64,000 nt of DNA from Candidatus Woesebacteria bacterium GW2011_GWB1_33_38 (GTDB taxonomy: Bacteria; Patescibacteriota; Microgenomatia; UBA8517). The notes under the pieces are model-generated. The model had not been told where the DNA came from. It saw only the letters and a list, made by a program, of their open reading frames with translations, and made no database searches. The DNA lies in the NCBI GenBank assembly GCA_000990005.1, contig LBPF01000001.1, forward strand, positions 90,315-154,314, given 5' to 3'. Numbering within the stretch: position 1 is the first letter of the stretch; each line of letters starts with the position of its first letter. Positions 2,766-37,561 of this stretch are shown piece by piece. The position numbers and the translations under genes are program-made.

Positions 2766-2782
2766 TAAAACAATTAATCTGT

Positions 2783-2805
2783 GACGAGTTACGGGTTACG
2801 AGTTA
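2783..2805. repeat. 5' arm of an inverted repeat flanking the four-helix-bundle gene (gacgagttacgggttacgagtta)
   Basis: Bases 2793-2805 (gggttacgagtta) are the perfect reverse complement of 3200-3212 (taactcgtaaccc). Heptamer-like internal reiteration (gagttac/gggttac/gagtta). Confidence 0.7.
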
Positions 2806-2813
2806 AACAAAAT

Positions 2814-16855: not shown

Positions 16856-16863
16856 ATTCACTT

Positions 16864-18722: not shown

Positions 18723-19570
18723 AACTGTTTAAGAACCCAAAACTGACTAAATTATCAATTGAATATTATAAAACCTATTATTCTGGAGTTACAAGAAATT
18801 GGAAAAAGCTTTCAAAAGATGTCTTAAACATAGAAAAAGCTAATGAGAAAATTACTCAGATTGAAAAGGCAGTAGGAACGATTAAGGGTAAAAAAATATT
18901 GGAGATTGGCTGTGGGTTCGGATTATTTTTAGGTAATACTTTTCAGAAAGGCGCCGATTGTTATGGTATCGAACCAGACAAGTTTGCGTATGAGGGAGCC
19001 AAAATTGTTCTTAAAAAATATGGAGTCAAGGAAGAAAGAGTTGTCCATGGTATAGGTGAAAAGCTTCCCTTTAAAGATAATTCGTTTGATATTGTGACGT
19101 CTGTAATGGTTTTGGAACATGCCCAAAACCCAGAATTAATTATAAAAGAGGCTGTAAGGGTTACAAGGCCTAAGGGAAAGTTGTATTTTGTAGCTCCTAA
19201 TTATAATTCATTTTGGGAAGGTCATTATGGAGTTTTATGGTTTCCGCTTCTTTCTAAAACTTTAGCAAGAATATATGTAAAATTGCTTGGAAGAGATGTA
19301 GAGTTTCTTGATGAAATTAACTTTACTACACCAAAAAAAGTAATAGCGATGTTTAAAAAAACTCACAAAGTGCGGATTTTTTCTACGGGCGAGGGAGTGT
19401 GGGTTGAAAGAATGAAAAATTTGAATTTTAATGCTTGGGGCCAAACAAATAGTCTTAAGAACAAACTTAGGTTACTTAAAACTTTTAGATTAACATATTT
19501 GGCAATAAGTTTAGGAAAAATGTTTCAATTTTATTATCCTATTATTATAGTTGCAGAAAAGAAAGCATGA
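18719..19570 (+). CDS. class I SAM-dependent methyltransferase
   Basis: ILEIGCGFGLF; FDIVTSVMVLEHA. Confidence 0.8.
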   Translation: MKLFKNPKLTKLSIEYYKTYYSGVTRNWKKLSKDVLNIEKANEKITQIEKAVGTIKGKKILEIGCGFGLFLGNTFQKGADCYGIEPDKFAYEGAKIVLKKYGVKEERVVHGIGEKLPFKDNSFDIVTSVMVLEHAQNPELIIKEAVRVTRPKGKLYFVAPNYNSFWEGHYGVLWFPLLSKTLARIYVKLLGRDVEFLDEINFTTPKKVIAMFKKTHKVRIFSTGEGVWVERMKNLNFNAWGQTNSLKNKLRLLKTFRLTYLAISLGKMFQFYYPIIIVAEKKA

Positions 19571-21105: not shown

Positions 21106-22037
21106 CTAGAAAAAAAATAATGAACATTCTTAAATTTGTTGTAAGTATTACCCTTATATATTTTTTAATAAAGAAGGTAGGAGTAGCACAATTTACTGAA
21201 GACCTTAAAAACCTAAATCTTTACTATCTTTTTTGGGCTTTCCTTTTTAATTTTATCAGTACACTTATTCAAGCTGAAAGATTGCGCATTATTGTTAACG
21301 GGCAAAGTATAAAGATGAATTACTTAAAAGCTTATAAATTTAATCTTATTAGTACATTTTTTGGAATCTTTTTACCCACTGTTATTGGTGGAGATGTGGT
21401 CAAAATGGCTCTTTTGTCATCTCATAGTGGTAAAAGAGCTGTATCAATTGGTGTAGTTACAATAGATAGAGTAATCGGGACTTATGCGTTGGTTGTGGTA
21501 GCTTTAATTGGGGGAATTGTTGGTAGAAAATATCTCACCAATAATATTGTTTTATATACAGTAGATGCGTTTATCATTGCATTTCTTACACTTCTCACAC
21601 TTAATATAAAAGGTATATGGGAAAATCTTTGGAAATTTATTGAACCCAAATTTGGTAAAAAGATTTCATCAATTAATACTTTTGTTCATACTTTACAATC
21701 ATATAGTATTTTTAATTCTTACTTTTTAAAAGCATTTATTTGGTCTTTGTTTTTTTATATGGCAATTGTTACGTCAAGCTATTTTGTCTCTCTTTCGCTT
21801 GGTCTAATTATTAACCCACTTGTTTTTTTTGTCTTTGTACCTTTATTGTCTTTAGCATCTATGGCACCGATTTCGATAAGTGGAATAGGCGTAAGAGAAG
21901 GTGTCTCGGTTGTTTTCTTTTCAACAATGGGAATAAGTTCTAGTTTAGGAGTGTTATTGTCTTTTATACCATTTGTTTTGAAAATGATAATGGGTTTTGT
22001 TGGCGGTATAATTTACACAATTACAGAAAAAATATGA
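21102..22037 (+). CDS. flippase-like membrane protein (lysyl-PG-synthase TM-region / UPF0104 family)
   Basis: LIYFLIKKVG...AERLRIIV...FLPTVIGGDVVKMALL...IDRVIG matches the LPG_synthase_TM pattern. 8 TM helices. Confidence 0.6.
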   Translation: MTRKKIMNILKFVVSITLIYFLIKKVGVAQFTEDLKNLNLYYLFWAFLFNFISTLIQAERLRIIVNGQSIKMNYLKAYKFNLISTFFGIFLPTVIGGDVVKMALLSSHSGKRAVSIGVVTIDRVIGTYALVVVALIGGIVGRKYLTNNIVLYTVDAFIIAFLTLLTLNIKGIWENLWKFIEPKFGKKISSINTFVHTLQSYSIFNSYFLKAFIWSLFFYMAIVTSSYFVSLSLGLIINPLVFFVFVPLLSLASMAPISISGIGVREGVSVVFFSTMGISSSLGVLLSFIPFVLKMIMGFVGGIIYTITEKI

Positions 22038-23179
22038 ATTTATTATTAATTAGCAATGAGTATCCACCGATAGGGGGTGGAGGATCAATAGTTGTCAAAT
22101 ATTTGGCTAAGGATCTTGCCAAAAAAGGCCATGTGGTTCATCTTGTTACATCAAGCTATGCAAATTTGTCGCGGGAAGAAGTGTATGATGGCTATATTGT
22201 TCATAGAATACCTGCGATTAGACTTAGTAAAGATTATTGTTCACTTTGGGAGCTAGTTATTTTTTCTATTTCGGCACTCTTCTATTCACTCTTTTTTGCT
22301 AAAAAATACAGAATAGATATTGTGCAGGCGTTTTTTGCAGTGCCTGCGGGAGGTGTTGCATATATTTTAAATATTATATATAAGATACCTTATGTAATAT
22401 TTTTAGGTGGTAGCGATGTACCAAATGCTAATCCTTATAGATACAAAACTATATATCCGATTCTTTCTCCGATTATCAAATTAATTTGGTCAAGAGCCGA
22501 TACTGTAGTCGCCGCAAGCAATGGGTTGAAAAAAATTGCAGAAAAATCTGATCCAAAAAGAAAATTTGTAATGATTCCAAATGGTGTAGATACAAAGTAT
22601 TTTGTTCATAAAAACATAAGGAGTAATATTGTTAATATTTTAGGAGTAGGGAGGTTAATGCCAAGAAAAGGCTATCAATTTGTTATTCAGGCATTGAAAA
22701 ATGTTAAAGCAAAAACAAAAAATAAATTTATTTTTACGATTGTCGGCGGCGGGGATTATCTAACTGAATTAAAAGAACTTGCAAGGAGAAATAATGTAAA
22801 TAAATTAGTTAAGTTTACAGGCCAAATAGACTACTCTGAGATTAAAAAATTATTGTCTACATCAGATATTTTTGTTCATCCCTCTATGGCTGAGGGAATG
22901 CCTTTGTCACTTCTTGAGGCCATATCGTCTGGCCTTCCAAGTATATCTACAAAAATCGCAGGCAACGAGGATTTGGTAAAAAATAATAAAAATGGCTTTT
23001 TATTGGAGGTTGGTGATGTTAACGGTATAACTGATTCGTTAATTAAACTTATTGATGATAAAAAATTAAGGCAAAAAATGGGAATTGAATCTGTTAAAAT
23101 TTCAAAAAATTACGACTGGGAAAAGATATCAAATGCTTACAATAAAATTTATACAAAAATATACAACTTGAAACAATGA
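22034..23179 (+). CDS. GT4 family glycosyltransferase (paralogue of 16864-18000)
   Basis: NEYPPIGGGGSIV; SMAEGMPLSLLEAISSGLPSIST. Confidence 0.8.
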   Translation: MNLLLISNEYPPIGGGGSIVVKYLAKDLAKKGHVVHLVTSSYANLSREEVYDGYIVHRIPAIRLSKDYCSLWELVIFSISALFYSLFFAKKYRIDIVQAFFAVPAGGVAYILNIIYKIPYVIFLGGSDVPNANPYRYKTIYPILSPIIKLIWSRADTVVAASNGLKKIAEKSDPKRKFVMIPNGVDTKYFVHKNIRSNIVNILGVGRLMPRKGYQFVIQALKNVKAKTKNKFIFTIVGGGDYLTELKELARRNNVNKLVKFTGQIDYSEIKKLLSTSDIFVHPSMAEGMPLSLLEAISSGLPSISTKIAGNEDLVKNNKNGFLLEVGDVNGITDSLIKLIDDKKLRQKMGIESVKISKNYDWEKISNAYNKIYTKIYNLKQ

Positions 23180-24138
23180 CAAATAAAAAGATAGTTATAT
23201 TTGGAGGATTGGGATTTATAGGCCGAAATTTAGCAATTAATCTTCTCAAAAAAAATTATAATGTGACACTAGTTGAACATGAATTAAAAGGAAAGAATTT
23301 AAAAGTTGCCAAGAAAATTAAAAATTTAAAAATTATAAAAGGAAACATATTAGACAAAAGATCAATAGCTTCTATTCTAAAGCATAAATATAATATCTTA
23401 TTCAATTTAGCGGCACATTCTGGACCAAAAGCTAGTGTAGATTATCCATTTTTAGATCTGGAGACAAACACTTTAGGATCTTTAAATATTTTAGAAGAGG
23501 CAAAAAAATACAAAGATCTGGTTGTTGTGTTTTTAGGATCCAGACTTGAATATGGAGAAGTAAACGAAATCCCAGTATCAGAAAAGACTGTATCTCAACC
23601 ACAAACGATGTATGGTTTAAGTAAATTCACAGCTTCTAGTTTTCATCTTTTGTACAATAAATTGTACTCAGTTAAGACAATTATTGTAAAAGGAGCAAAT
23701 CCTTACGGTACGCATATTTATAATCCAAATCCTGCTTACAATATAATTAATTATTTTATTGATAAAGCCAATCATGATGAAGATATTGAAATTTTTGAAA
23801 CTGCCAAAAATCAAATCAAAGATTATATTTATATTGATGACTTTTGTGAGGCACTTGTTAAATTGTCACTGAACAAAAATGTTTATGGTCAGGTATATAA
23901 TTTAGGAAGCGGTAAGGGTATTAAATTTATAGATGCAGCAAAAACAATCACTAGAATTTTAAAAAAAGGAAGAGTTGTAGTTATTAAACAAAATTCCTTG
24001 TTAAAGAAAATAGAAGCTGGTGATTATGTGTCTGACATAAGTAAAATCAGTAAACGTATTAATTGGAAACCTAAAATCAGTTTTGTTAAAGGTATTTTGA
24101 TGACGACCAACATAAGACATATTATTTTTGATATTTAA
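23176..24138 (+). CDS. NAD-dependent epimerase/dehydratase family protein
   Basis: IVIFGGLGFIGRNL; YGLSK. Confidence 0.8.
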   Translation: MTNKKIVIFGGLGFIGRNLAINLLKKNYNVTLVEHELKGKNLKVAKKIKNLKIIKGNILDKRSIASILKHKYNILFNLAAHSGPKASVDYPFLDLETNTLGSLNILEEAKKYKDLVVVFLGSRLEYGEVNEIPVSEKTVSQPQTMYGLSKFTASSFHLLYNKLYSVKTIIVKGANPYGTHIYNPNPAYNIINYFIDKANHDEDIEIFETAKNQIKDYIYIDDFCEALVKLSLNKNVYGQVYNLGSGKGIKFIDAAKTITRILKKGRVVVIKQNSLLKKIEAGDYVSDISKISKRINWKPKISFVKGILMTTNIRHIIFDI

Positions 24139-24835
24139 TATGAAAAATATATATCAAAAAGATTATCACAAGAAATATTCACAAGAATTAATCGCTAGAA
24201 AACATTTGTTAGATTTTGTTCAACAAAACATTGAAGTTAAAGAGAAAATAATTTTAGACGCAGGTTGTAATGGTGGTTTCTTAAGCTTTTTTATGGCTAA
24301 AAACGGTGCTAAAAAAGTTTACGGCTTGGATATGTCACCTGGTTTTATTAAGGCAGATATCAAACGGGCAAAACAAGAAAAAATGATTGATAGATTTAAT
24401 TTTAAAGTCGGTAATATTGAACATCTGCCATATAAGGATAATTTTTTTGATTTTATTATTTGTTCTGAGGTAATAGAGCATGTAAGTAGACCTGATTTAG
24501 TAGTCAGTGAATTTAATAGAGTGTTGAAAAAAAATGGACGTGTTTTAATTACTACACCAAATATTTTAAACCCAATGGAAATTGTGCACAATCTGAAACA
24601 CTATTTGATGTGGATAATTAAAAAAGAGCCAATTACACATATTCAACATTTTACTTTTATTAATCTGAAAAAACTATTCTTAGGATTCACCGTTGTTAAA
24701 ATAGTTGGAGTGGGAATAGGAGCCGCTTTTTTACCTTTTTCAAAGTTTGGCTTTATTAAAAAGATTGATTATTTATTAGGTAATTTATTACAGCCAATTT
24801 CATTTGATTTATTTTTGTTAGTCAAAAAGAAATAA
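24128..24835 (+). CDS. class I SAM-dependent methyltransferase
   Basis: ILDAGCNGGFLS; FDFIICSEVIEHV. Confidence 0.75.
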   Translation: MIFNMKNIYQKDYHKKYSQELIARKHLLDFVQQNIEVKEKIILDAGCNGGFLSFFMAKNGAKKVYGLDMSPGFIKADIKRAKQEKMIDRFNFKVGNIEHLPYKDNFFDFIICSEVIEHVSRPDLVVSEFNRVLKKNGRVLITTPNILNPMEIVHNLKHYLMWIIKKEPITHIQHFTFINLKKLFLGFTVVKIVGVGIGAAFLPFSKFGFIKKIDYLLGNLLQPISFDLFLLVKKK

Positions 24836-24837
24836 TT

Positions 24838-25533
24838 ATGGAAGATCCAGTGGGAGAAAAATCACTAGAAGTAATGTCTGAAGCCAAATGGTATAACTTA
24901 CTTATTTACAACCGTTTTGTGAAACCAAATTTAGGTAAAAAAGTTCTTGAAATAGGATCTGGGATTGGTAATTTTACAGAAATACTCCTTAAAGATTCGA
25001 AGTTGTTATTAGCAACAGATATTAGAAAAAGTTATCTCTCCACCCTTAGAAAGATAAAAAACAAAAAGCTTAAAGTTGCATTTGCGGATATTGAAGATAA
25101 TATTTTTAAACCTAAATATACTGGTTTTGATACGATTATATGTTTAAATGTTTTAGAGCATATTAAGAACGATCAAAGGGCGCTTAATAATATGTACAAG
25201 AAATTAAATAAAAATGGGAAGTTGGTGATGTTGGTTCCAGCCCATCAACAGTTTTATTGTTTGTTAGACAAGAATCTAGGTCATTTTAGGAGATATACCA
25301 AAAATTTACTGCGAAATAAAATAAAAAAGGCAGGCTTTAAGATTGTTTCTGAAGATTATCTGAATCCTATTTCAGGTATTGGTTGGTTTATTAATGGAAA
25401 GATATTAAGAAAAGGGGTAATTGATACTAAATTAATTAAAATATTTAATCTTTTATTAAAACCTATCATTAAATTAGAAAAATATTTTAGACCATCGTTT
25501 GGATTATCGGTCGTTATTGTTGCTCAAAAATGA
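24838..25533 (+). CDS. class I SAM-dependent methyltransferase
   Basis: VLEIGSGIGNFT; FDTIICLNVLEHI. Confidence 0.75.
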   Translation: MEDPVGEKSLEVMSEAKWYNLLIYNRFVKPNLGKKVLEIGSGIGNFTEILLKDSKLLLATDIRKSYLSTLRKIKNKKLKVAFADIEDNIFKPKYTGFDTIICLNVLEHIKNDQRALNNMYKKLNKNGKLVMLVPAHQQFYCLLDKNLGHFRRYTKNLLRNKIKKAGFKIVSEDYLNPISGIGWFINGKILRKGVIDTKLIKIFNLLLKPIIKLEKYFRPSFGLSVVIVAQK

Positions 25534-26966
25534 AATCGAATAAAACCATTATATTAACAACAGTTTTCTTGATTTTTATATTTAATTTTTTCCTAAGAAT
25601 CTACTTTGCAAATCAAATAAAAGGTGTTTCTGGTGGGGATGCTTATAACAATTTATTTATTGCAAGACATATTGTCAATGGCAATAATCCCTTCTTGGAA
25701 GCAAGAAGATTGCCTTTTTACCCATTACTTTTGGTTCCAACACAATTTTTTGAGGTTGATCCTATCTTATATTCAAGAATAATTGCAGCTTTAGCTGGGT
25801 CACTATTGTCTGTAGTTATTTTTCTATTTGCGTTGAGTTTTAAATTAAATATTTTTCTATCAATAGTTGTAGCGATGCTAACAGGTATGTCACCGACATT
25901 ATTTTTTGTATCGGTAAGACCTCTTTCCAACAGCACATTTGCTTTTTTAATCGTCACCTCTGTTTACTTGTTTTATCAAAATTACAAAAAGAAGAAATTT
26001 AACAAAAATTATTCTTTATGGTTTATGTTGGGACTGGCTTCGATGACAAGACATGAAGGTTTTGTTATCGCCTTCATATTCTTTATATTTTTGCTACTAA
26101 AAGCAATTAAGAGAAAACAAATTATTAAATTAATTTATTCGTTAATACCATTTGGAATATTAGTATTACCTTTTTTTATTAATAATTATTTAAATTTTGG
26201 CAAACTTTTCTATTCAGATTATTTGGAATATCCAGAAGGTTTATGGATGCCAAAAGGTTGGGACGAATTTATCCGAAATTTTAATATGCTTTCAGAAATA
26301 CCAAAATATATTTGGTTTTCTGGAACTCAATTTTTGTCTTATGGGAAAATACTAAGCTTCATTTTGATCATTGGAGTGTTTGCATGGATAAATGATAAAA
26401 AGAAATTATCTATACCCTTAATATTTATTTTACTGTCTCAAGTTGTTATATCATTTTGGTATCAACCAACAATTAGATATTGGCTTCAAATAATACCCTT
26501 TGCATCCTTTTTAGTGGTTTATTTAGGTTTTTCGTTGTCAAAAAAATACAGTTTAAAAATATTTGTATATCCACTTTTTGTTTTAATACTTTTTTTCCAA
26601 TTCAAATCACTTTATATTTATATGAAAGGAACAGTAAATCAATTAAACCAAGGTACGCGACAAGAGTATCTGTTAAGGAAAGCACTTCTTGATGTTTCGC
26701 AGAATTTTGAAGGAAAAATTGGTCTACCTGCCGATTATCCACAAGCTCTTTATTTTTTGAAGAATAAAGGTGTTTACTATACAACCCGACCTCCCAAGAT
26801 AGATTCAATTGAGATTCAAGAAAAATGGATAAAAGATAATTCTATTAACTATCTGTTAATTCCTAAAGAACACGATTTTCTAGACATCGTAAGAATTAAA
26901 AAATTTCCAATAGTAAAAATATTTAAGGAAGATAATTCGGAAGTCGTAATGTATAAAGTTTTATGA
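25530..26966 (+). CDS. polytopic membrane protein, putative GT-C-like glycosyltransferase (module copy A)
   Basis: SGGDAYNNLFIARHIV...FLEARRLPFYPLLLVP...MTRHEGFVIAF. Paralogous to 29580-31007. Confidence 0.5.
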   Translation: MKSNKTIILTTVFLIFIFNFFLRIYFANQIKGVSGGDAYNNLFIARHIVNGNNPFLEARRLPFYPLLLVPTQFFEVDPILYSRIIAALAGSLLSVVIFLFALSFKLNIFLSIVVAMLTGMSPTLFFVSVRPLSNSTFAFLIVTSVYLFYQNYKKKKFNKNYSLWFMLGLASMTRHEGFVIAFIFFIFLLLKAIKRKQIIKLIYSLIPFGILVLPFFINNYLNFGKLFYSDYLEYPEGLWMPKGWDEFIRNFNMLSEIPKYIWFSGTQFLSYGKILSFILIIGVFAWINDKKKLSIPLIFILLSQVVISFWYQPTIRYWLQIIPFASFLVVYLGFSLSKKYSLKIFVYPLFVLILFFQFKSLYIYMKGTVNQLNQGTRQEYLLRKALLDVSQNFEGKIGLPADYPQALYFLKNKGVYYTTRPPKIDSIEIQEKWIKDNSINYLLIPKEHDFLDIVRIKKFPIVKIFKEDNSEVVMYKVL

Positions 26967-28822
26967 TTAATAAAATAATTGTTTTTATTACGTTTTTAGT
27001 CCTGCTCTTTTTCTTAAAAGAAAGTCTTTTGCTTATTGATCCATTTGAAAGACCAGGTGCTTTTTTGGAACATATGAATGAGATTCCATTATTAATATCA
27101 GTTTTGATCGGGATTGCTGGAGTTTTTGCAGTATTTAGTTATTTATTTATTAACAAATTAAACAAAAAATATTGGATTTATGCTTTATTAATTGTGCTGT
27201 TTTTATCTCTTTCAGCAAAGTTTCTTTACACACTGGTTTTACCAGTTACGAACGATGAGGGGGCTTATCTTTATGATTCTCTCTTGATTAGCCAAGGTTC
27301 ATCTCCTTTTCATTTTTCCTTTGCTAGATCTCCAGCCTTTGTTTATCCGTTAGCACTATTTATTAAAACTTTTGGATCTAGCTTATTTATTGGGAGAAGT
27401 TTTTCAATAGTTGTATCTATTGGTATAAGTTTTATTTTATTCTTAATAGGTAAATTTATAAAAAATGAAAGGTTGGGATTTTTAAGTTCTTCTTTTTTTC
27501 TTGTATTTTCTCCGATGGTTTATGACACTATTTATGTTCATACACAGACTATAACTATATTTTATGTACTTGTTTCTTTTTATTTCTTACTTAGATCAAT
27601 TAAAGATGGTAAAAATTTAAATATACTGATTTCTTACTTTTTTATTTCATTAGGTATTTTGACTAGAGAAATGGTCATATTCTATTTACCCCTATGGGCT
27701 GTGCTCACTTTTTTCCCGATTAGTAAAAAGAATTTTGCTCATAAACTAATTAAAACGGTTTTAGGATGCTCAATGTTTACTCTCACTTATTTGGGTTTAT
27801 GGTCTTTAATTGGTCTAAGTATTGGATTCGAAAAAGTTTTTTATAATCTTATGGCGCTTGCCACTGCTAGGCAAGGTCACACTAGCTATATTGTATCTAT
27901 CGTGTCTAAACTTGAGCTTGTTAGATTTAATTTGGTTTACGCCTTTGGAATATTATCTCTTTTTACTACTTCTGCATTCAGTTTTATTTTAGGTAAATTA
28001 ATAAAACATAAAAATATTCTGTTGGGTTTTGTTTCTATTGTACTGATCCTTTTCGTTAAAAGTGTTCCCAATACGCTTGTATCAATAGGTATGGATAATT
28101 ATTATCTTTTTTTTGTTGTGATGGCTGTTTTGTTTAGTTGCTCTTTGATCTTATACTTATCCAAGAATTCCATAAAAGACACGCAAAAAAGCACTTCATT
28201 GATATATTTAATCGGTTTGTTCGCTGTCCCATTCTCTTTTTACCTTTTCTATTATCCGAATTTTCAAACAGAGTATTGGATAGAATTTCTAGTACCGCTT
28301 ATCATGGTGATTTCATTCATGTTTAATCATCAAATTATAAAATTTGATTACAAACGTAATATTTGGTTGCTTTTAACACTATTGATTGTGGTCTCTGTAA
28401 ACACATTCTTATCTTTTTGGGTTACTCTTAAACCACAAAGAGGAACATACTCAATAACAAATTTGATAGAGATCAGAGACCATCTTATAAAAAATTACCC
28501 CAAGAGAGAGATCTTTACTGGTGCGTCGATTATACCTTTTGTTTCTGGAAATAGCCTAGCTTTAAACATTACTCATCCTGCTATATATTCTTACCAAGAT
28601 ATTGATAGTAGAATAATTGATAAACTTTTTCCCTCAGAGAAAGAGATTGTTGATTATTTGGCTGTTAATAAAATACAAATTGTAGTAATTGAAAAATTTA
28701 CAACAGACTCTTATTTTAGTAAAAGTGATATGATAAAAAATTATATATATGCAAATTATTCAGAAGAAAAGATAATTGGTTCTGAAAACCCCTTAATATT
28801 ATTAACCAAGAACGAAAAATGA
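26963..28822 (+). CDS. GT-C superfamily glycosyltransferase (module copy B)
   Basis: First-loop VTNDEGAYLYDSLLISQG. About 13 TM helices. Paralogous to 30982-32727. Confidence 0.6.
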   Translation: MINKIIVFITFLVLLFFLKESLLLIDPFERPGAFLEHMNEIPLLISVLIGIAGVFAVFSYLFINKLNKKYWIYALLIVLFLSLSAKFLYTLVLPVTNDEGAYLYDSLLISQGSSPFHFSFARSPAFVYPLALFIKTFGSSLFIGRSFSIVVSIGISFILFLIGKFIKNERLGFLSSSFFLVFSPMVYDTIYVHTQTITIFYVLVSFYFLLRSIKDGKNLNILISYFFISLGILTREMVIFYLPLWAVLTFFPISKKNFAHKLIKTVLGCSMFTLTYLGLWSLIGLSIGFEKVFYNLMALATARQGHTSYIVSIVSKLELVRFNLVYAFGILSLFTTSAFSFILGKLIKHKNILLGFVSIVLILFVKSVPNTLVSIGMDNYYLFFVVMAVLFSCSLILYLSKNSIKDTQKSTSLIYLIGLFAVPFSFYLFYYPNFQTEYWIEFLVPLIMVISFMFNHQIIKFDYKRNIWLLLTLLIVVSVNTFLSFWVTLKPQRGTYSITNLIEIRDHLIKNYPKREIFTGASIIPFVSGNSLALNITHPAIYSYQDIDSRIIDKLFPSEKEIVDYLAVNKIQIVVIEKFTTDSYFSKSDMIKNYIYANYSEEKIIGSENPLILLTKNEK

Positions 28823-29580
28823 AAATATCTAAATTAAAATTACAGGAAGTAAAACTACACAAAAAACTAGCAAAATCCTACTATTGGGTGCGTGAAAAAA
28901 ATTCTCATTATAAGTATTTTAATAATTTGTGGATAGAACAAATACAAACCATGCTTCCAAAAAAGAAGTATCAAAATACATTGGATTTAGGTTGTGGCAC
29001 CGTTGAATTTTATGAATTAATTAAGGATAAACTCAATTCAAATTATTTAGGGGTTGATTTGTCTCCAGACATGCTTAATATTGGTAGGAAAAAATACAAA
29101 AACATACGTTTGCTAGAAGCCGACGCGGAAAATTTACAAATAAAAGATAGTACCTTTGATTTAATAATCGGACGAGGTATTATCCATCACTTACCTGAAC
29201 CTGTAAAAGGGTGTGAAGAAGCTTATCGAGTGCTCAAAAAGGGCGGATATTTTATTGTTTCCGAACCTTATAGTAATATTTTTCTCAAATTGATTCGTAA
29301 GATTTATTATAGATTATCAAATCATTTTTCAGATACTCATAAATCGTTTTCTGGAGATGAACTTTCAAATTTATTAATTAAATCTGGATTCGTAATTAAA
29401 GAGATCGGTTTTTGGGGAGTTCTATCTTTTCCATTTGCTTTCCCCGACATCTTGCCTACTTATAAGTTTGTTCCACTTCCCATATTTAAGCTCTTAGTCC
29501 AGCTAGATAAGATAATTGTCAAAATACCATTTATCAAAAAAATGGCTTGGCACATAATAATTCTTTGTAAAAAAAGGTAA
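28819..29580 (+). CDS. class I SAM-dependent methyltransferase
   Basis: LDLGCGTVEF; FDLIIGRGIIHHL. Confidence 0.8.
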   Translation: MKISKLKLQEVKLHKKLAKSYYWVREKNSHYKYFNNLWIEQIQTMLPKKKYQNTLDLGCGTVEFYELIKDKLNSNYLGVDLSPDMLNIGRKKYKNIRLLEADAENLQIKDSTFDLIIGRGIIHHLPEPVKGCEEAYRVLKKGGYFIVSEPYSNIFLKLIRKIYYRLSNHFSDTHKSFSGDELSNLLIKSGFVIKEIGFWGVLSFPFAFPDILPTYKFVPLPIFKLLVQLDKIIVKIPFIKKMAWHIIILCKKR

Positions 29581-31007
29581 TGAAAAAATACATATGGCTT
29601 ATTGTGATTATTTTTATAGCAATTTTGTTAAGGTTGTTATTAATTACCAGTATCCAAGGAACAAGTGGGGGAGATGCTTTTGAGTTTTTGTTGATTGCAA
29701 AAAGAATCATTTCATTTGAGAATCCGTTTTTGGATGTTAAAAGACTTCCATTTTTCCCGATAACATTAATCCCTTCATATTTTTTAAATATTGATGGAAT
29801 AATGTGGGGGAGAATTGTAAATACAATATTTGCAGGTCTATCCCTGTATTATATGTATTTAATCGGGGATAAGTTTAAGATTTCAAAATTTTTGAATTAT
29901 TTATCTTTAATTCTTTTTACATTTTCTTCTGTTTATCTCTTTTATTCACTTAGACCTCTTTCTTCTTCTCTTTTTACACTTCTGTTTCTATCGTCAATTT
30001 ACTATACATTAGAGAGCAAAAAAACATCTATTTTATTTGCGTTTACGTCTCTTGGTCTTTTGTCTATGACAAGGCATGAAGGATTTCTGATTTCGCTAAT
30101 AATATTTTTATATTATTTTTGGTCAACTAAAAGAAAAGATTTAATTGTCAAATTTTCAAAACCTTGCTTAATCTATTTAATTTTAGTTCTTCCATTTTTT
30201 TTAAACAACTATATTTATCATAAAAACTTTCTATATTTAGGTTACTTAGACGATGGAGGAGGGTTATATATACCCAAAAATTATGAAAACCTTGCCTCTA
30301 ATTTGAAAATAATGTCATTCGCAATTTATTCCACCTGGGGGAATATAAGAATTTTTAAAACTAACATTAATTTACTCAACATTTTATTTAGCTCAACTGT
30401 TATTTTTATTGCCTTAGGATTAATTGATTATCTTAAAAAAATAAACAAACAAAAAATGCTTGCTTTGATTCTTTTAATCTCACAATTAATAATTGCTTTA
30501 TGGTTTCAACCTAGTGGTAGATATATTCAACATCTAACACCATTTTTGTCGACCCTTTTGTTATTAGGTATAAGTAAATTTTCAAAAGTTATTCTCCCGA
30601 TACTTATAACAGGTGCTTTAGTTACAACTTCGTTGTATACAGTCAAGCTTAAAATAGATGAATTTAATTTTGATACAAAAGGCCAAAAAGAATTTACTGA
30701 TTCTATTAAATATTTAAAAGTCAGATCAGGTATAGTGGCCATTGAGCCTGATAGGGATTATACTCAAAGTTACATTGCAAAATATTATTTGGGAGACAGT
30801 CGAATCAAATTTATAGGGGGTGATTTTCTTGGTCGTGGTTTGATCGACAGTAATCCTAGATCCCAAATTAATTGGCTTCAAAGTGAAAATGTCAAATATA
30901 TTGTTGACTCACCTAAATTTGATGATTTTACGTTTTTAGGCGACAATAGATATCAAGGTCAGTTTATAATAAAAACAAATTATGTATATGAAGTTATTAA
31001 AAAATAA
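29580..31007 (+). CDS. polytopic membrane protein, putative GT-C-like (module copy A')
   Basis: SGGDAFEFLLIAKRII...FLDVKRLPFFPITLIP...MTRHEGFLISL. Confidence 0.5.
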   Translation: MKKYIWLIVIIFIAILLRLLLITSIQGTSGGDAFEFLLIAKRIISFENPFLDVKRLPFFPITLIPSYFLNIDGIMWGRIVNTIFAGLSLYYMYLIGDKFKISKFLNYLSLILFTFSSVYLFYSLRPLSSSLFTLLFLSSIYYTLESKKTSILFAFTSLGLLSMTRHEGFLISLIIFLYYFWSTKRKDLIVKFSKPCLIYLILVLPFFLNNYIYHKNFLYLGYLDDGGGLYIPKNYENLASNLKIMSFAIYSTWGNIRIFKTNINLLNILFSSTVIFIALGLIDYLKKINKQKMLALILLISQLIIALWFQPSGRYIQHLTPFLSTLLLLGISKFSKVILPILITGALVTTSLYTVKLKIDEFNFDTKGQKEFTDSIKYLKVRSGIVAIEPDRDYTQSYIAKYYLGDSRIKFIGGDFLGRGLIDSNPRSQINWLQSENVKYIVDSPKFDDFTFLGDNRYQGQFIIKTNYVYEVIKK

Positions 31008-32727
31008 AAAAGTTTTACTTGTTGGTTTTATTGTCTTATTGGGTTTGTTTATACATTTGTATTACGCAAACAATTTACCATTAACAAACGATGAAAGCTC
31101 GTATCTTTATGATACCTTAAACATCAGGAATGGATTAATACCTCTTAAAGATTTTCTAACCAAGTCATTACCATTTATTTATTTATTAACTTTATCTCAA
31201 AGTATTTTTGGCAACTCAATTTTCGTGGGTAGATTGTTAATGATTGTTATTTCCCTTTTTACATCACTATTACTTTATTTTTTTGCTAGGGATATGTTGG
31301 GTAAGAAAATTGCAATTATTTCAGGTCTAATTTATTGGGCGTTTCCATTAATTGCTGCATATACTACACAGATACATACAGAACCGCTTCAAGTGTTGTG
31401 TGTTATCCTGTCATATTTATTTTTATTTAGATTTAGAGTTTCAAAAAAATTACATCATTTACTCTTCTCCGCGATAGCCATGACAATTGCCTTTTTTGTT
31501 AGACAATCAAGCATAGTACTAATACTACTACCGGCACTTTTTGAAATGTTTAGTAAAATTTTATTTAAAAGTAAATTTTTAAAATTACCTATCTATTTTT
31601 TTGCAATTACCTCTGTATTAATATCACTAGTCACAATATTTGCTTACAATTATTTTGGAGGTGGCAGAACACTTGAACTTGTTGGTGGTGGGGCGGCTAA
31701 TTTGGCAATTCAAGAAAAAGGATCATTGGGTATAAAAGAAATTATAACCTATCCTTTTAAATTTGGTCTCGAGGCGATTGTTGAAGCAAATAATCTATTT
31801 AGAGATGGTTTAATTTTATTGTCTTTTGCACTGCTTACATTATTCTATTATTTCTTAGCCAAAAGAAATAAAATTGAAGATAAATTTAAGACTTATGGTT
31901 TTGCCTCTATATTTTTGATATTTATTTTTTCAATGTACCAATTTCGTTATCATCTCTTTTCCGGATTGTGGAAAGTAGACATGATTCCACAAGTAAATTT
32001 ACTATTCTTGACTATTGTTTTAACGTTGTTAACTTTTTCTCACGTGACGCATCGGAATTCACTTAGCCCTAAATATTTTAAGATTTTTAATTCCCAATTT
32101 TATAAATTTTTAATTTTATGGATAATTATACTTTTGGGAATATATTTATTGTGGATTAAATTCCGATCACCATATTTGATTGAGTTCTTTCCTCCTCTCC
32201 TTATTCTTTTTTCAATTGGCATAACATCTTTTATTGAAGACATAAATTTAATTACAAATAAAGTTTATAAAAAAAGCATCAGATTAATATTAATTTTATT
32301 CACAATAGTTTCATTTACAACTTCTTTTTATATGAATAAGAATATATACTTCACAGGTTTGTTTTTACCAGCAGAAGTTGAAGAAATAACAAATTATATT
32401 AAGTCTGAATCGCCCAGTAAAGATACTATCCTGACAGCTTTAGCAATACTCCCATATTTATCGGACGATGAGGTAATTTATAACATTTCTCATCCAGCTT
32501 GGTATGGATATACTAATATCAGGCGAGATGTATTTTTATTATATTTTCCTCCTGTTGAAAAATTATTAGAGTTACTTAAAAATAGAAGGGTTAAATTCAT
32601 TATTAGAGAACCATTTACAGATGCATCTTATTTTAGATATAAAGATATACGAGAACAGATGGAGGTAAATTATTCACTTGTAAAAACTGTTGGAAGGGCC
32701 ACTATATATAAGATTAAAGATGAATAA
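30982..32727 (+). CDS. GT-C superfamily glycosyltransferase (module copy B')
   Basis: LTNDESSYLYDTLNIRNG first-loop motif. Multi-TM. Confidence 0.6.
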   Translation: MYMKLLKNKKVLLVGFIVLLGLFIHLYYANNLPLTNDESSYLYDTLNIRNGLIPLKDFLTKSLPFIYLLTLSQSIFGNSIFVGRLLMIVISLFTSLLLYFFARDMLGKKIAIISGLIYWAFPLIAAYTTQIHTEPLQVLCVILSYLFLFRFRVSKKLHHLLFSAIAMTIAFFVRQSSIVLILLPALFEMFSKILFKSKFLKLPIYFFAITSVLISLVTIFAYNYFGGGRTLELVGGGAANLAIQEKGSLGIKEIITYPFKFGLEAIVEANNLFRDGLILLSFALLTLFYYFLAKRNKIEDKFKTYGFASIFLIFIFSMYQFRYHLFSGLWKVDMIPQVNLLFLTIVLTLLTFSHVTHRNSLSPKYFKIFNSQFYKFLILWIIILLGIYLLWIKFRSPYLIEFFPPLLILFSIGITSFIEDINLITNKVYKKSIRLILILFTIVSFTTSFYMNKNIYFTGLFLPAEVEEITNYIKSESPSKDTILTALAILPYLSDDEVIYNISHPAWYGYTNIRRDVFLLYFPPVEKLLELLKNRRVKFIIREPFTDASYFRYKDIREQMEVNYSLVKTVGRATIYKIKDE

Positions 32728-33631
32728 TATGTTTTGGAATAACAAAAAAGTTTTTTTAACTGGTGGGAATGGTTTTGTTGGTAGTAAATTATCCCAAGCC
32801 CTTAAAAAGAAAAAAGCTGAAGTATTTTTATATGATGGCGATATTAGAAATTATCAGGATTTATTTGATCAGTTTGTAAAGTCTAAAACTACAATTATTT
32901 ACCATCTTGCGGCCCAGTCACTAATTGAAGTGGGAAAAATAAGTCCGATTGAGACTTTTGAGATAAATATAAAAGGGACTTGGAATATTCTTGAAGTAGC
33001 GAGAAAGGCGGGAGTTGAAAAAATTGTTATAGCTTCAACCACTCATGTTTACGGTGATAATCCACACCTACCATACAAAGAGGAATATTACCCACAACCT
33101 TCAAGACCTTATGAAACATCAAAAGCTTCGGCTGATTTAGTTTCACAATGTTACGCAGATACTTATAATTTACCTGTTGAAATATCTAGAATGGTAAATT
33201 TATACGGACCAGGTGATCTAAATACATCAAGATTGTTTCCAAAAATAATTAGTCAATTACTTAACAATATAAACCCTGTAATTTTTGATATAGGCGCTGT
33301 ACGAGATTTTTTATATATTGATGACGCAATTGAAGGATATTTAAGGCTAGGGCAGGTAAAACTTCCAAATGTAAAAAGAGCCCGTGTTATCAATTTTGGT
33401 TCGGGTAAGCCAATTGATATAACTACACTTGTTGACAAAATAATTAAATTATATGGAAACAAAAAGTTACATTTGTTAACCAAAGCTGTTCCTGACGAAA
33501 GAGAAAAAGAAATTAAAAAACAATATGTATCTATTGCTAAAGCAAAGAAACTTCTTGATTGGACTCCAAAGGTCAGTTTAGATCAGGGAATAAAAAAAAC
33601 TATAGCTTTTTATGTGAAACAAAAAAGTTAA
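32720..33631 (+). CDS. NAD-dependent epimerase/dehydratase family protein
   Basis: VFLTGGNGFVGSKL; YETSK. The ATG at 32720/32729 is preferred over the long ORF start at 32690. Confidence 0.8.
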   Translation: MNNMFWNNKKVFLTGGNGFVGSKLSQALKKKKAEVFLYDGDIRNYQDLFDQFVKSKTTIIYHLAAQSLIEVGKISPIETFEINIKGTWNILEVARKAGVEKIVIASTTHVYGDNPHLPYKEEYYPQPSRPYETSKASADLVSQCYADTYNLPVEISRMVNLYGPGDLNTSRLFPKIISQLLNNINPVIFDIGAVRDFLYIDDAIEGYLRLGQVKLPNVKRARVINFGSGKPIDITTLVDKIIKLYGNKKLHLLTKAVPDEREKEIKKQYVSIAKAKKLLDWTPKVSLDQGIKKTIAFYVKQKS

Positions 33632-35994
33632 AACTTTTTATACACATCAAAAGTTGGTGTGATATATGTTTCTGGTTTCTCGTGTCCTAAAACACTAGGC
33701 CTTTTCCCAAAGGTTGCAATTAACTTATAATTTCTTCCAAGAATACTTGGAATAATTTTACCGTACGGATTTTCTGCTATTTCTCCCAAGAAATTAAACG
33801 ATCCCCATCTGCCCTTATGATTGATGGTTCTATATATGACAATATAATCGGGAAATATTTTACCTTGTTCAACAGATTTCATCTGATCATAGTTATAAAC
33901 AAGTTTCTTGTCACGGTTTAAAAATATTCTATCTCTACTACTTGGTAAAAGTATAAAAACGGATTCATTAGATTTTGAAGTTTTGTTCAAGAACGTGGCC
34001 ACCTCAGTTCTTGGATCAGAAATCGCGTATGGATAAAAATAAGCTAAAGAGAATAAAAACATATACCCCACAACCAACATTATTACTGTGTTTGTTAAAA
34101 TTTTAATTTTTGGTATATTTTTATCTATATAGTAAAAAACAGCACCTGTGAATATAGCTACGAATGGTGCAAAGGGAACAATGTAGCGATCTTCATTAAC
34201 ATCACCATATTGATTGAGAGACAAAAAGAAAAATACATAAGTAATGAGAAGTGCAAGAATCAGATTTGAATCCTGTTTGTTTTTAATTCTGTGAATTATA
34301 ACAAACAACAAAATTACAATTCCAATCAAATGCAAATATGTTGCCGGTTCGGAAAATGCGAGTGTAAAAAAAGGGTAATCTTTACTTTGATATCTACTCC
34401 AAATGTATTTAATGCTCGTAGGACTTATGTCATATCTTTTAATGGAAGTTCGTTGGAAAGCATTACGTGGATCGGCCAAGGCTACTTTGTAGTTCTTTAA
34501 GCAGCAAAATGGATATGGGTAAAATGTTTTAAAAATAAAAAAAGCAAAAACTATTAGTGCTGAAAAATAAAAAATTGCTATTCCTAATTTTTTTCTGTTG
34601 TTATACAGTGTAACTAGACATAAGAATCCAAATGCAGGTAGAGCTACCAAAAAGGTGGCTTTTGTAGACATAGCTAATCCAAGGATAATCCCCGTAATTA
34701 CAAACAATATTAATTTGCTTGATTTTGTCAACAAATAAGCTAAATATAATATTAAGGGAATAAATAAAGTTACTACAGCCTCGCCTTTAGCTAACTGTGA
34801 CATAAACCAATGTCCAGGGAAAAGTGTATAGATAGACATTACAAAAAGAGCTGTTTTCTCGTTAAACATTTTATTGGCGATTATGAAGACAATTAAAATT
34901 GAAGATATTCCAAAAAAAGCAGTTAATACTCTCATAATCCCATAAACTTTATATGCGCTTATGAATTCCTTTGGAGATATCTTAAGTCTATCTAATAAAT
35001 TTGAGCTGTTGTCGTAAAAAACTTTATATAAATATACTGGTTTGGCAATTTCATATTCTCCAAAGTTTTTAAAGAAGTCTTTATCTAATACATAGTTATA
35101 CATATGTCCTTCATCATGATATGGTGAGCCATGTTTTATCCCATTAGTGTTTAGCCCCCAAAAGATTCCAGCAGTTCTCAAAAAAATTCCAAGAAGCAAA
35201 ATACAAATAAAAATAAATTTGTTTCTAATTGGTATTTTTGAAATTAATTTAGTCAACCAATCAAATTTTATGGGTTGTAAATTGTATTTTAAAATTTCCC
35301 AAATATTTTTCGCTCCGTCTCGCCAGCCAATTTTTTTACCCTCTTCATATGATCTGCCTGTGTAAGAGATTCCAACTTCATAAATTTTTACATTTTTTAA
35401 TTTGGCAAGTTTTGCCGTTAACTCAGCTTCAATTCCAAATCTTTGAGATTCAAGTTTTGGTGCAATTTGATCAATTATGTGTTTTTTAAAAACTTTATAG
35501 CCAGTCTCCATGTCAGTAAAATTTAGATTGGTTAAGATATTTGAGAGTGTGGTTAACATTTTATTGGCTACATAGTGCCAATAATAAAGAACCCTATGGG
35601 GTTTATTGGTTACAAATCTAGATCCGTAGACAACATCTGCTTGATGTTCAAAAAAAGGTTGGAGCATGGTAGGGTAATCATCAGGGCTATACTCCAAATC
35701 GGCATCCTGAATCATTACCAGGTCGCCAGTTGTCTTTAAAAACCCTTTTTTACATGTTGCTCCTTTACCAAGATTTAATCTATTTTTAAGAAGAGTAATT
35801 TTTAAAAGCTTTGATTTGTACTTTTTAACAAAACGATTAACCTCGAGAATAGTATTATCTCTTGATCCATCGTCAACAACTACGATTTCTTTTTTTAACT
35901 TAAGCGTATCTGATTTTGCAACTTTTTGAAGCGTTTGAAAGATGAACTTCCCTTCGTTATAAACTGGTATTACAATAGAGATAGATTTGATCAT
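33628..35994 (-). CDS. fusion: N-terminal GT2 polyprenyl-phosphate sugar synthase (DPM1-like) + C-terminal about 550-aa GT-C-like polytopic domain
   Basis: N-terminus ISIVIPVYNEGKFI...VVVDDGSRDNT...DADLEYSPDDY, followed by more than 10 TM helices with a loop motif YHDEGHMYNY. The ATG at 35994 is preferred over the upstream TTG at 36000. Confidence 0.7.
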   Translation of the reverse strand: MIKSISIVIPVYNEGKFIFQTLQKVAKSDTLKLKKEIVVVDDGSRDNTILEVNRFVKKYKSKLLKITLLKNRLNLGKGATCKKGFLKTTGDLVMIQDADLEYSPDDYPTMLQPFFEHQADVVYGSRFVTNKPHRVLYYWHYVANKMLTTLSNILTNLNFTDMETGYKVFKKHIIDQIAPKLESQRFGIEAELTAKLAKLKNVKIYEVGISYTGRSYEEGKKIGWRDGAKNIWEILKYNLQPIKFDWLTKLISKIPIRNKFIFICILLLGIFLRTAGIFWGLNTNGIKHGSPYHDEGHMYNYVLDKDFFKNFGEYEIAKPVYLYKVFYDNSSNLLDRLKISPKEFISAYKVYGIMRVLTAFFGISSILIVFIIANKMFNEKTALFVMSIYTLFPGHWFMSQLAKGEAVVTLFIPLILYLAYLLTKSSKLILFVITGIILGLAMSTKATFLVALPAFGFLCLVTLYNNRKKLGIAIFYFSALIVFAFFIFKTFYPYPFCCLKNYKVALADPRNAFQRTSIKRYDISPTSIKYIWSRYQSKDYPFFTLAFSEPATYLHLIGIVILLFVIIHRIKNKQDSNLILALLITYVFFFLSLNQYGDVNEDRYIVPFAPFVAIFTGAVFYYIDKNIPKIKILTNTVIMLVVGYMFLFSLAYFYPYAISDPRTEVATFLNKTSKSNESVFILLPSSRDRIFLNRDKKLVYNYDQMKSVEQGKIFPDYIVIYRTINHKGRWGSFNFLGEIAENPYGKIIPSILGRNYKLIATFGKRPSVLGHEKPETYITPTFDVYKKF

Positions 35995-37561
35995 GTTCAA
36001 AAAGATTTTGTTACTGGGAATTATAGGACTTCTTTCTCTATTTTTCTATTGGAAATTTTCTATGCCTAAGTATTTAACTTTTTCCGATGGGGCTAAGGTT
36101 GCCGATATTGCAAAAAATATTGCACAAGGTAACGGCTATGGGTCCACTTTTTCATCATTTGGAGCAGATAAGGAAATCCTAAATCATTTAAGTTTAAATG
36201 TTTTCCCTGCATGGGGTAGGCACCCTCTAATGCCTTTTTCTGTGGCTATCTTTTACAAGTTGTTCGGAGTAGGTGATTTGGGATTGATTTTAACTTCTAC
36301 TTTTTTTTATTTGTTATCGATAATAGGAATCTACTTGTTGGCCAAAAATATTTTTAATGAGAATATTGGTTTTATTTCTGCACTTTCCTTTATTTTTATA
36401 CCTATCTTTTGGGAATATGCTCTAACTGGAGCCTCTGAGTCTTTGTTTATTTTAGAGATAGTTTTAACTTTTCTATTTTTAACGTTAAAAAATAAACGAC
36501 TTCACATTCTTGGTTTAGTTGTTGCAGGTCTATCATACTTTACTAGACCTCAAGGGTTTATTTTAATTGTTGGAGCATTAACATATTATTTTTTGATATC
36601 TAGTAAGAGTATAAAGTTAGTTTTTTTTAAGTTAATTCTAGCTGTGGTTATCGGAATAGCTATTGACTTAACTTTGTTTACAAAACTAACAGGTAAAACA
36701 TTTTTCTATTCAATATTGTCAAAAGGTGTTGATGTTTCAGTTCTTTATACCCCAAGTTTGTCTGGTACGACTGGTTTAAGGACACAGGTTGATGCAAAAG
36801 ACCTGTTAATTTCAAACAGTTTAGAAGTAGGCAAAAAAGTATTTTACAATTTCTACAATTTATATAAGTTAATGCCCGATATCATGCCTTCATCTATTTT
36901 TGTACTTTTTATGTTATCTCTGTTTATTAAGGAGGAAGAAAAAAAGATAAATTATATAAAATATACTTTCCTTTTTATGTTTTTGTTAACTATCTTGTCA
37001 ACCTCAGTTTCAATTCCATTTTTTAGATATTTACATCCATTTGTTCCCCTACTTCTTATCTTTGCAATCTCTACGCTTTCAAAAATTGTAAAAATTAAAT
37101 TTGTATACCTCCTTGTATTTATTTATCTGATTGCAAATAGCCTAGGTATCTTATTTTTGGATTCAAGGTTTATATCAAATACTAAAAACACTAGTAAACC
37201 TCCAGTTTATGTTTTAATGTCACAGATCTTAAAAGACAATACATCAAGTAACGATGTTGTGGTTACAAACCTTGATACCTGGGGAAGTTGGTATGGTGAA
37301 AGAAAAACTGTCTGGTTTCCTGTAGATCCAAAAGTAATTGCAGAAAGTGATTTTGACGCAATTTATTTGACAAGTTATAAAATGGATGACGAAAATTATT
37401 ATATGGGTGATGATTGGAGAAAGATATTTAACAATTCCGAAAATCAAACAGTATTATCTCAATATAAATTAGAAAAAGAATTTATGATTAATGCTGAAGA
37501 TACATATGAAAACGAACCAGCTAACGCAGTTCTGTTGGTAAAAAAAGTTTCTTCAAACTAA
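35993..37561 (+). CDS. GT-C superfamily glycosyltransferase (ArnT-like)
   Basis: Multi-TM; the loop FSDGAKVADIAKNIAQGNGYG resembles the ArnT first-loop region. The ATG at 35993 overlaps the divergent gene's ATG in a CATG palindrome. Confidence 0.5.
   Translation: MFKKILLLGIIGLLSLFFYWKFSMPKYLTFSDGAKVADIAKNIAQGNGYGSTFSSFGADKEILNHLSLNVFPAWGRHPLMPFSVAIFYKLFGVGDLGLILTSTFFYLLSIIGIYLLAKNIFNENIGFISALSFIFIPIFWEYALTGASESLFILEIVLTFLFLTLKNKRLHILGLVVAGLSYFTRPQGFILIVGALTYYFLISSKSIKLVFFKLILAVVIGIAIDLTLFTKLTGKTFFYSILSKGVDVSVLYTPSLSGTTGLRTQVDAKDLLISNSLEVGKKVFYNFYNLYKLMPDIMPSSIFVLFMLSLFIKEEEKKINYIKYTFLFMFLLTILSTSVSIPFFRYLHPFVPLLLIFAISTLSKIVKIKFVYLLVFIYLIANSLGILFLDSRFISNTKNTSKPPVYVLMSQILKDNTSSNDVVVTNLDTWGSWYGERKTVWFPVDPKVIAESDFDAIYLTSYKMDDENYYMGDDWRKIFNNSENQTVLSQYKLEKEFMINAEDTYENEPANAVLLVKKVSSN

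Follow-up and report, generated by a model that had tools for sequence, protein, structure and literature searches.

We analysed a 64,000-nucleotide (nt) stretch of contig LBPF01000001.1 from Candidatus Woesebacteria bacterium GW2011_GWB1_33_38, a groundwater member of the candidate phyla radiation (CPR); this whole stretch is called the window below. It carries two successive pairs of membrane protein genes, A-B and A'-B', accompanied by three genes for class I S-adenosylmethionine (SAM) methyltransferases, MT0, MT1 and MT2 (Table 1). A first-pass annotation of this DNA had described the six genes from MT1 to B' as a tandem duplication of a three-gene module consisting of a methyltransferase, a 'membrane protein A' and a glycosyltransferase of the GT-C type, B. 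All six open reading frames (ORFs) lie where that annotation placed them, on the plus strand, with their stops and starts overlapping or abutting. Related loci, obtained from homologue searches and numbered with the prefix L, were compared with the window by gene order and identity. The B protein itself is 100% identical to UR39_C0001G0133 of Candidatus Woesebacteria bacterium GW2011_GWA1_33_30.

Table 1. Genes of the two A-B pairs and their immediate neighbours in the window
Gene	Predicted product	Position	Strand	Basis or remark
23176	SDR-type NDP-sugar epimerase/dehydratase	23176..24138	+	Pfam Epimerase, E 7e-43; flanks the cassette upstream
MT0	Class I SAM methyltransferase	24128..24835	+	Pfam Methyltransf_31/11, E 4e-26; directly upstream of MT1
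MT1	Class I SAM methyltransferase	24838..25533	+	Pfam Methyltransf_23/12/11; no signal peptide or transmembrane segment
A	GT-C-fold glycosyltransferase, 478 aa	25530..26966	+	AlphaFold2 and Foldseek; small C-terminal alpha/beta domain
B	GT-C glycosyltransferase (PMT_2 type), 619 aa	26963..28822	+	Pfam PMT_2; AlphaFold2 and Foldseek
MT2	Class I SAM methyltransferase (UbiE/Methyltransf_11 type)	28819..29580	+	Between the two pairs
A'	Paralogue of A, same GT-C family, 475 aa	29580..31007	+	BLASTP against A; A' clade with 99% bootstrap
B'	Paralogue of B (GT-C, PMT_2 type), 581 aa	30982..32727	+	Pfam PMT_2; BLASTP against B
32690	SDR-type NDP-sugar 4,6-dehydratase/epimerase	32690..33631	+	Pfam GDP_Man_Dehyd/Epimerase, E 1e-44; recurrent downstream neighbour of A-B pairs
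SDR, short-chain dehydrogenase/reductase; NDP, nucleoside diphosphate; aa, amino acids.

Paralogy of the two pairs

Paralogy was assessed by all-against-all BLASTP of the 59 window ORFs. A and A' are 30% identical over 447 aa (E 3e-46, 159 bits), and B and B' are 30% identical over their N-terminal 187 aa (E 7e-17), with scores of 75-130 bits overall. The next best GT-C match was 35987 for A' (39 bits) and 52958 for B' (33 bits), while A had no other match; no comparison of any of the four with the other GT-C genes of the window exceeded 39 bits. B and B' align from end to end in a multiple alignment, where they share the C-terminal motifs HPxxY, IEF and FTxxSYF, and residual in-register DNA similarity between their genes persists in two short stretches, one at the TNDE motif and one at the FTxxSYF motif. 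The motifs on which the first-pass annotation had based its proposal are all present: SGGDAY, EARRLPFYP and MTRHEGF in A correspond to SGGDAF, DVKRLPFFP and MTRHEGF in A', and VTNDEGAYLYDSL in B corresponds to LTNDESSYLYDTL in B'. These comparisons indicate that the paralogy of A/A' and of B/B' is real and far above chance, and that each gene is its counterpart's closest paralogue among the at least 14 GT-C genes of the window. The pairwise identities that had been proposed as a check thus stand well above those to the other GT-C genes of the locus.

The methyltransferases did not follow this pattern. MT1 and MT2 are 27% identical (E 1e-5, 37 bits), in keeping with the earlier remark that both are class I enzymes but less alike than the membrane proteins. 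The best matches of MT2 are 17997 (71 bits) and MT0 (48 bits), and MT1 also matches 17997 best (47 bits). Thus, of the proposed three-gene tandem module, the A and B parts are borne out, but the methyltransferase part is not.

A and B as predicted GT-C enzymes

An AlphaFold2 model of A, built from a 12-sequence alignment, had a mean local confidence (pLDDT) of 90.7 and a predicted template modelling score (pTM) of 0.90. A Foldseek search of the PDB with this model gave 33 GT-C matches at E<=1e-3, and the best matches, ArnT 5f15 (E 1e-7, TM 0.58), ALG12, STT3/PglB, DPY19, ALG9, AftB and Pmt4, are all GT-C enzymes. The model thus identifies A as a GT-C-fold glycosyltransferase, and homology extends this prediction to A'. 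The label 'membrane protein' was correct as far as it went, but A is predicted to be more than that; the unit of the cassette therefore consists of two GT-C enzymes.

The A family is one that Pfam barely detects. A itself scores 25.8 bits against PMT (cutoff 22.7) and 22.3 bits against PMT_2 (cutoff 26.1), and neither A' nor most homologues of the family have any Pfam match. A and A' are not members of NCBIfam NF047440, against which they score 25.2 and 25.7 bits with a curated cutoff of 200. The family is nevertheless sizeable, with 142 representative clusters (50% identity) at E<1e-30 and 360 at E<1e-10. Family alignments show an invariant SGGD in the first outer loop, together with the motifs RLPxxP, SxRPLS, SMTRHEGF and QPxxRY. 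The aspartate of SGGD (D37), which lies in the first extracytoplasmic loop after transmembrane segment 1 (TM1), is invariant in A, A' and all 12 aligned family members. One partial homologue, P0003, is 75% identical to A and carries an NCBI label of Candidatus Subteraquimicrobiales (Actinomycetota), even though the window's B matches a Woesebacteria genome at 100%; this label probably reflects a mis-binned or mislabelled contig of a metagenome-assembled genome (MAG).

Most members of the A family belong to a long form (730-800 aa), whose N-terminal extension carries no annotation. We considered whether a methyltransferase is fused in this extension, but none of the four long-form proteins scanned matched one, and three of the four had no Pfam match at all. 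A different conserved neighbourhood of the same family is seen in L021, L022 and L026/L027. There the long-form A-like genes encode 561-802 aa (the lower figure is that of the ORF called in L022) and overlap the next gene, whose product is a GT-C-like membrane protein of some 600 aa that weakly matches YfhO, DUF6044 or PTPS_related. The A-like genes are preceded on the opposite strand by an asparagine-synthase-like gene.

B and B' are more readily classified. Both exceed the gathering threshold of Pfam PMT_2 (PF13231; 26.1 bits), with 37.2 and 58.9 bits. B has an N-terminal extension of about 65 aa that is missing from B', and a C-terminal alpha/beta domain. Its AlphaFold2 model (pLDDT 76.8, pTM 0.82) best matched STT3, ArnT, PglB and AglB in Foldseek, with E from 1e-6 to 1e-5 for the first three. 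On this model B has a GT-C fold, and B', by homology, would share it.

A and B are built alike, since in each a small C-terminal alpha/beta domain comes after the membrane module, and they are remote homologues over their first ~170 residues (hhalign 97%, E 4e-11). GT-C enzymes carry a catalytic acid just after TM1. Both A and B keep invariant acidic residues right after TM1: in B and B', the motif TNDExxYLYD of the first outer loop is invariant, including D98, E99 and D105. The position of these residues, and of D37 in A, suggests that they may have a catalytic role.

Methyltransferases next to the pairs

MT1 orthologues lie directly upstream of A in L014, L001, L002, L003 and L006, at 47-81% identity, and the subfamily is marked by the motifs GHFRRY, LVPAH and GLSxxVxA. 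We conclude from this gene order that MT1 is a methyltransferase travelling with the A-B cassette. MT0, which the first-pass annotation did not list, is conserved upstream of MT1 in L014 and L001-L003 (orthologues at 66-79%) and is absent in L006.

The slot between the two pairs has a different history. The gene that separates B from A' in L001 and L003 is a paralogue of MT1 (32-37% identity, ~90-110 bits) with the motifs LVPAH, GHFRRY and GLSxxVxA; a split with 97% bootstrap separates these two genes and the MT1 genes from all other methyltransferases, including the window's MT2. The window's MT2 has none of the MT1-subfamily motifs. L014 carries an MT2 of the window type (82.5% identical), and L002 has no gene between B and A'. 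Because MT2 falls outside the MT1 clade and lacks its motifs, L014 carries the same lineage, and the slot is empty in L002, the sequences indicate that MT2 is not a copy of MT1 and not a product of the duplication. It appears to be a non-orthologous occupant of the slot. Since the slot gene of L001 and L003 is an MT1 paralogue, the ancestral duplication probably included an MT1-type gene, and the slot was later emptied or refilled. The proposal of a partner methyltransferase is therefore supported in part, by MT1, which accompanies A-B in L006, and by the MT1 paralogue between the pairs of L001 and L003, but not by the MT2 of the window and L014, nor by L002, where the slot is empty.

Age and divergence of the cassettes

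The Woesebacteria-type loci L014, L001, L002 and L003 carry A, B, A' and B' in the order of the window. Orthologues are 40-73% identical, compared with about 30% between paralogues in every genome; the closest relative is L014, at about 72% identity. In neighbour-joining trees the A, A' and B clades have bootstrap support of 98-99%, and, within the family sample, a 98% split sets A, A' and the A-type protein of L006 apart from the A-type proteins of L007/L010 and from the long-form clades. Because the order is the same in all of these loci, orthologues are closer than paralogues, and the clades are well supported, the sequences place the duplication before the split of the sampled Woesebacteria lineages, with all four genes kept intact. 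The ancient duplication of an A/B pair that had been proposed is thus upheld, as each copy forms a clade of its own that includes its orthologues from five genomes.

Alignment columns that are invariant within each paralogue clade but differ between the two (Type-II sites) number 28 for A/A' and 26 for B/B'. These columns adjoin conserved motifs, at 39-43, 58-59, 78-82, 229-236 and 314-319 in A, and at 108-122, 187-195 and 431-437 in B. Copies that took on different substrate specificities would be expected to leave such a pattern.

L006 shows how such a cassette can change within a stable setting. Its flanking GT4 gene is 78% identical to 22034 and its epimerase 74% identical to 23176, as close as the flanks of L014. 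These flanks and a 32690-like epimerase enclose just one MT1-A-B cassette, at 47%, 34% and 35% identity. As the flanks are at 74-78% and the cassette is at 34-47%, the comparison indicates that the locus is conserved around a hypervariable cassette and that MT1, A and B have been exchanged together.

Association of A with B

The first pass had raised the question of whether A and B always occur as neighbours. For short-form A genes (~475-565 aa) a B-type gene follows in every locus with readable downstream DNA: both pairs in five Woesebacteria loci, and pairs in L006, L007 (a Saccharibacteria MAG), L009, L010, L017 and L016. In L009 a C-terminal fragment of A' type precedes the B'-type gene, and in L016 A and B are one gene apart, with an opposite-strand GT87 gene between them. 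The A-B junction is an overlap or a gap of at most 3 nt in all paired loci except L016. Neighbourhood is thus the rule for the short form only, since long-form A-like genes have no B neighbour. We also considered whether long-form B-like proteins pair with A-type genes, and rejected this; the neighbour in L033 is a GT-C gene of the 19567 type. No A-B fusion proteins were found among the homologues. A contig scan of species-representative genomes, in which the window's own lineage was not among the matched representatives, returned only two distant relatives.

An SDR epimerase/dehydratase usually flanks the A-B pair. A 23176-like gene precedes the A-type genes of L006 (74% identical), L007 and L025; L016 has a 32690-like epimerase upstream instead. 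On the other side, an SDR gene follows the B-type gene in L001-L003, L006, L007, L009 and L010; it is 32690-like in L001-L003 (60-66%), L006 and L009 (46%), 14962-like in L007, and without a subtype call in L010.

The surrounding locus

The window has a G+C content of 30%, and nearly all of it is coding on the plus strand, with overlapping gene stops and starts. It contains GT2 and GT4 glycosyltransferases, SDR sugar enzymes/epimerases, a flippase-like protein, Wzx, a Wzy_C-like protein, ManC, a Bac_transf initiating transferase and acetyltransferases, and RecO marks the end of the glycan locus. This gene content identifies the surroundings of the A/B pairs as a Wzx/Wzy-type polysaccharide (surface-glycan) locus of more than 60 kb. 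At least 14 genes of the 64-kb window have GT-C signatures of PMT/PMT_2 type, an unusually dense set of glycosyltransferases for lipid-linked donors in a CPR bacterium with a very small genome.

Several other features of the locus deserve mention. The adjacent GT-C (PMT_2) genes at 43-1236 and 1224-2765 are paralogues (29% over 407 aa, E 4e-36) and represent a second tandem GT-C duplication. An older repeat of a larger segment, made up of epimerase, GT4, methyltransferase and GT-C genes with one or more methyltransferases, is possible between 14962-21105 and 22034-26966: 14962 and 23176 are 33% identical (E 6e-41), 16864 and 22034 are 32% identical (E 1e-48), and 17997 and 24128 (MT0) are 34% identical (E 1e-17). 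The first two are reciprocal best matches in the window, while 17997 ties at 71.2 bits with 24128 and 28819 (MT2). The overlapping ORFs at 56893-57414 and 57407-57937 match the two halves of a GT4 enzyme like 45041 or 48513, with Glyco_transf_4 at the N-terminus and Glycos_transf_1 at the C-terminus, which identifies them as the parts of a split or frameshifted GT4 gene. A DDE transposase gene (PF01609) lies on the minus strand in the middle of the glycan locus, at 46714-48195. Also on the minus strand, 33628-36000 encodes a 790 aa fusion of GT2 with a GT-C (PMT/PMT_2) membrane domain, which is kept in L001-L003; L009 has two separate GT2 genes there. Another unusual fusion, at 8779-10320, joins a vitamin K epoxide reductase (VKOR) membrane domain to a dihydroorotate-dehydrogenase-like domain in one ORF. 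Finally, a homologue of the 23S rRNA intervening-sequence protein (2781-3176) and a PIF1-like helicase (5333-6877) stand among the glycosylation genes.

Discussion

In sum, we think it likely that the region holds two diverged copies of a two-enzyme GT-C cassette, A then B, which arose by tandem duplication, probably together with an MT1-type gene, before the sampled Woesebacteria lineages split, and which then diverged within a variable surface-glycan locus. Both paralogue pairs would since have been kept under purifying selection. The slot between them would have turned over, so that it now holds an MT1-like gene in two relatives, nothing in one, and, in the window and L014, an unrelated methyltransferase of class I.

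Several of our results weigh against this account. The trees are neighbour-joining trees with bootstrap on few sequences, and those of A and B are not fully congruent. The A-type protein of L006 groups with A (80%), yet its B-type protein is nearer to B' (~300 versus ~100 bits); the B-type proteins of L007/L010 group with B (84%), while their A-type proteins fall outside both A clades. Such incongruence might stem from unequal rates, from recombination between cassettes, or from separate acquisition instead of one clean duplication in place. Additionally, profile searches of PDB sequences with A and B found no solved relative, and no NCBIfam model reaches its cutoff for either family.

Three other explanations have to be weighed against a tandem duplication in place. 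That the four proteins resemble each other only as all GT-C genes of the locus do, with no specific duplication, is exceedingly improbable. They do belong to one superfamily, in which even A and B are remotely homologous over their N-terminal regions. However, scores of 159 bits for A/A' and 75-130 bits for B/B', against at most 39 bits to some ten other GT-C genes of the window, rule out chance or generic likeness as the source, and the alignments run the full length and include invariant motifs specific to each family. It is harder to judge whether one of two homologous cassettes was inserted by recombination or by horizontal transfer of a diverged allele. L006, whose cassette is far more diverged than its flanks, shows that cassettes are replaced at this very site; L006, L007 and L010 are placed differently in the A and B trees; different lineages have swapped or lost the methyltransferase gene of the slot; and a DDE transposase lies within the locus. 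Against this, both pairs occur in the same order in all five Woesebacteria loci sampled, no remnants of mobile elements flank the cassette, and the mutual closeness of A and A' means that a donor would have been a close relative, which is hard to tell from a duplication. We therefore consider insertion unlikely.

The remaining explanation concerns what was duplicated. A and B, and likewise A' and B', could be obligate heteromeric GT-C complexes like yeast Pmt1-Pmt2 or mycobacterial EmbA-EmbB, in which case the duplication would have given rise to a second complex of shifted specificity and not to four independent enzymes. GT-C heterodimers of two active subunits are documented for both EmbA-EmbB and Pmt1-Pmt2 (PMC7341804), and the cassette has several properties that would suit such a complex: short-form A adjoins B in all readable loci, across Woesebacteria and the Saccharibacteria MAG, their junctions are tight everywhere except in L016, and the two genes were duplicated together and, in L006, also replaced together. 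Yet tight overlap is common to nearly all genes of the locus and is not specific to A and B, a GT87 gene is inserted between them in L016, and no homologue is an A-B fusion. Moreover, long-form A-like and B-like proteins occur without the other partner, and L006 combines an A-like with a B'-like gene, which argues against strict co-evolution of partners. A complex of this kind is possible, but we lean clearly towards two enzymes that act separately within one duplicated cassette. On a wider proposal, short-form A and B would together make up a heteromeric GT-C glycosyltransferase not recognised before and shared by CPR phyla (Microgenomates/Woesebacteria and Saccharibacteria). It would travel with an SDR sugar-modifying enzyme and often with a dedicated sugar methyltransferase, and its duplication here would have given two complexes of different specificity for a methylated cell-surface glycan; of this we are more doubtful still.

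Comparison with known systems helps to place the duplicated cassette. The best structural matches of A and B are multi-helix GT-C enzymes of the ArnT/PMT type (CAZy GT83/GT39; Pfam PMT and PMT_2), with which they share a small extracytoplasmic C-terminal domain and acidic residues in the first outer loop, B/B' having DE as in PMT-type enzymes and A/A' having SGGD. Unlike these, A and B have no sequence-level PDB match and are only 10-14% identical to the solved structures; A and A' fall below or barely at the Pfam thresholds, and there is no MIR domain. The genes stand amid GT2 and flippase-like genes, as in three-component lipid-phosphate-sugar systems (ArnC/ArnT, GtrB/GtrA/Gtr and CsbB/YfhO). 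The mycobacterial embC-embA-embB genes resemble them as tandemly duplicated GT-C genes of a cell-envelope glycan locus whose paralogues are specialised for different steps. However, the partners in Emb and Pmt are close paralogues of one family, whereas the unit repeated here consists of two remotely related GT-C families, and A and B lack the carbohydrate-binding modules of Emb type. Of the named families, A and A' touch NF047440 alone (residues 62-377), the LA_3751/LA_3752 putative glycosyltransferase of Leptospira, whose name likewise covers two consecutively numbered genes; the scores of about 25 bits, however, are far from its cutoff of 200. A literature search on GT-C enzymes in CPR or Woesebacteria found nothing relevant.

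Cassettes get swapped in variable O-antigen or capsule loci. The present locus resembles such Wzx/Wzy-type loci in its Bac_transf initiating transferase, Wzx, Wzy_C-like protein, NDP-sugar enzymes and many glycosyltransferases, and in a central cassette much more diverged than its flanks between relatives. It differs from them in its unusually high density of GT-C genes and in its host, a CPR bacterium with a small genome.

Based on these results, we propose a model for how the products of the cassette might work. GT-C enzymes use lipid-phosphate-sugar donors and act on the outer face of the membrane. From this general knowledge, and from three-component glycosylation systems, A and B may be expected to do the same, and the GT2 and flippase-like genes of the locus suggest that their donor may be a polyprenyl-phosphate-sugar. 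In the first part of our model, cytoplasmic SDR and GT2 enzymes would make polyprenyl-phosphate-sugars. The cytoplasmic methyltransferases may then modify a sugar or a lipid-linked intermediate before export; methylation is possibly cytoplasmic because the methyltransferases have neither a signal peptide nor a transmembrane segment, and that sugars are methylated at all is suggested by the genomic context. In the second part, flippase-like proteins would carry the intermediates across the membrane. In the final part, on the outer face of the membrane, A, B, A' and B' would extend a growing surface glycan or glycoprotein by one sugar each. The residues fixed differently in the loops around the conserved motifs suggest that the two copies most likely use different donor or acceptor sugars.

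Expansion by paralogues is a real but fairly ordinary way for glycan clusters to grow, and tandem expansion of GT-C paralogues in envelope-glycan loci is already known from embCAB. The present case draws its interest from the A family, which lacks annotation, and from the fact that it is constantly paired with B in different CPR lineages. It is also striking that surface glycan synthesis takes up more than 60 kb of a tiny CPR genome, with at least 14 GT-C enzymes. The single cassette of L006, the turnover of the methyltransferase slot and the divergence of the paralogues show how such loci diversify. With A, essentially unannotated until now, as a predicted GT-C enzyme and a PMT_2-type enzyme as its constant partner, the cassette offers a testable unit for how episymbionts build and vary their cell surface.

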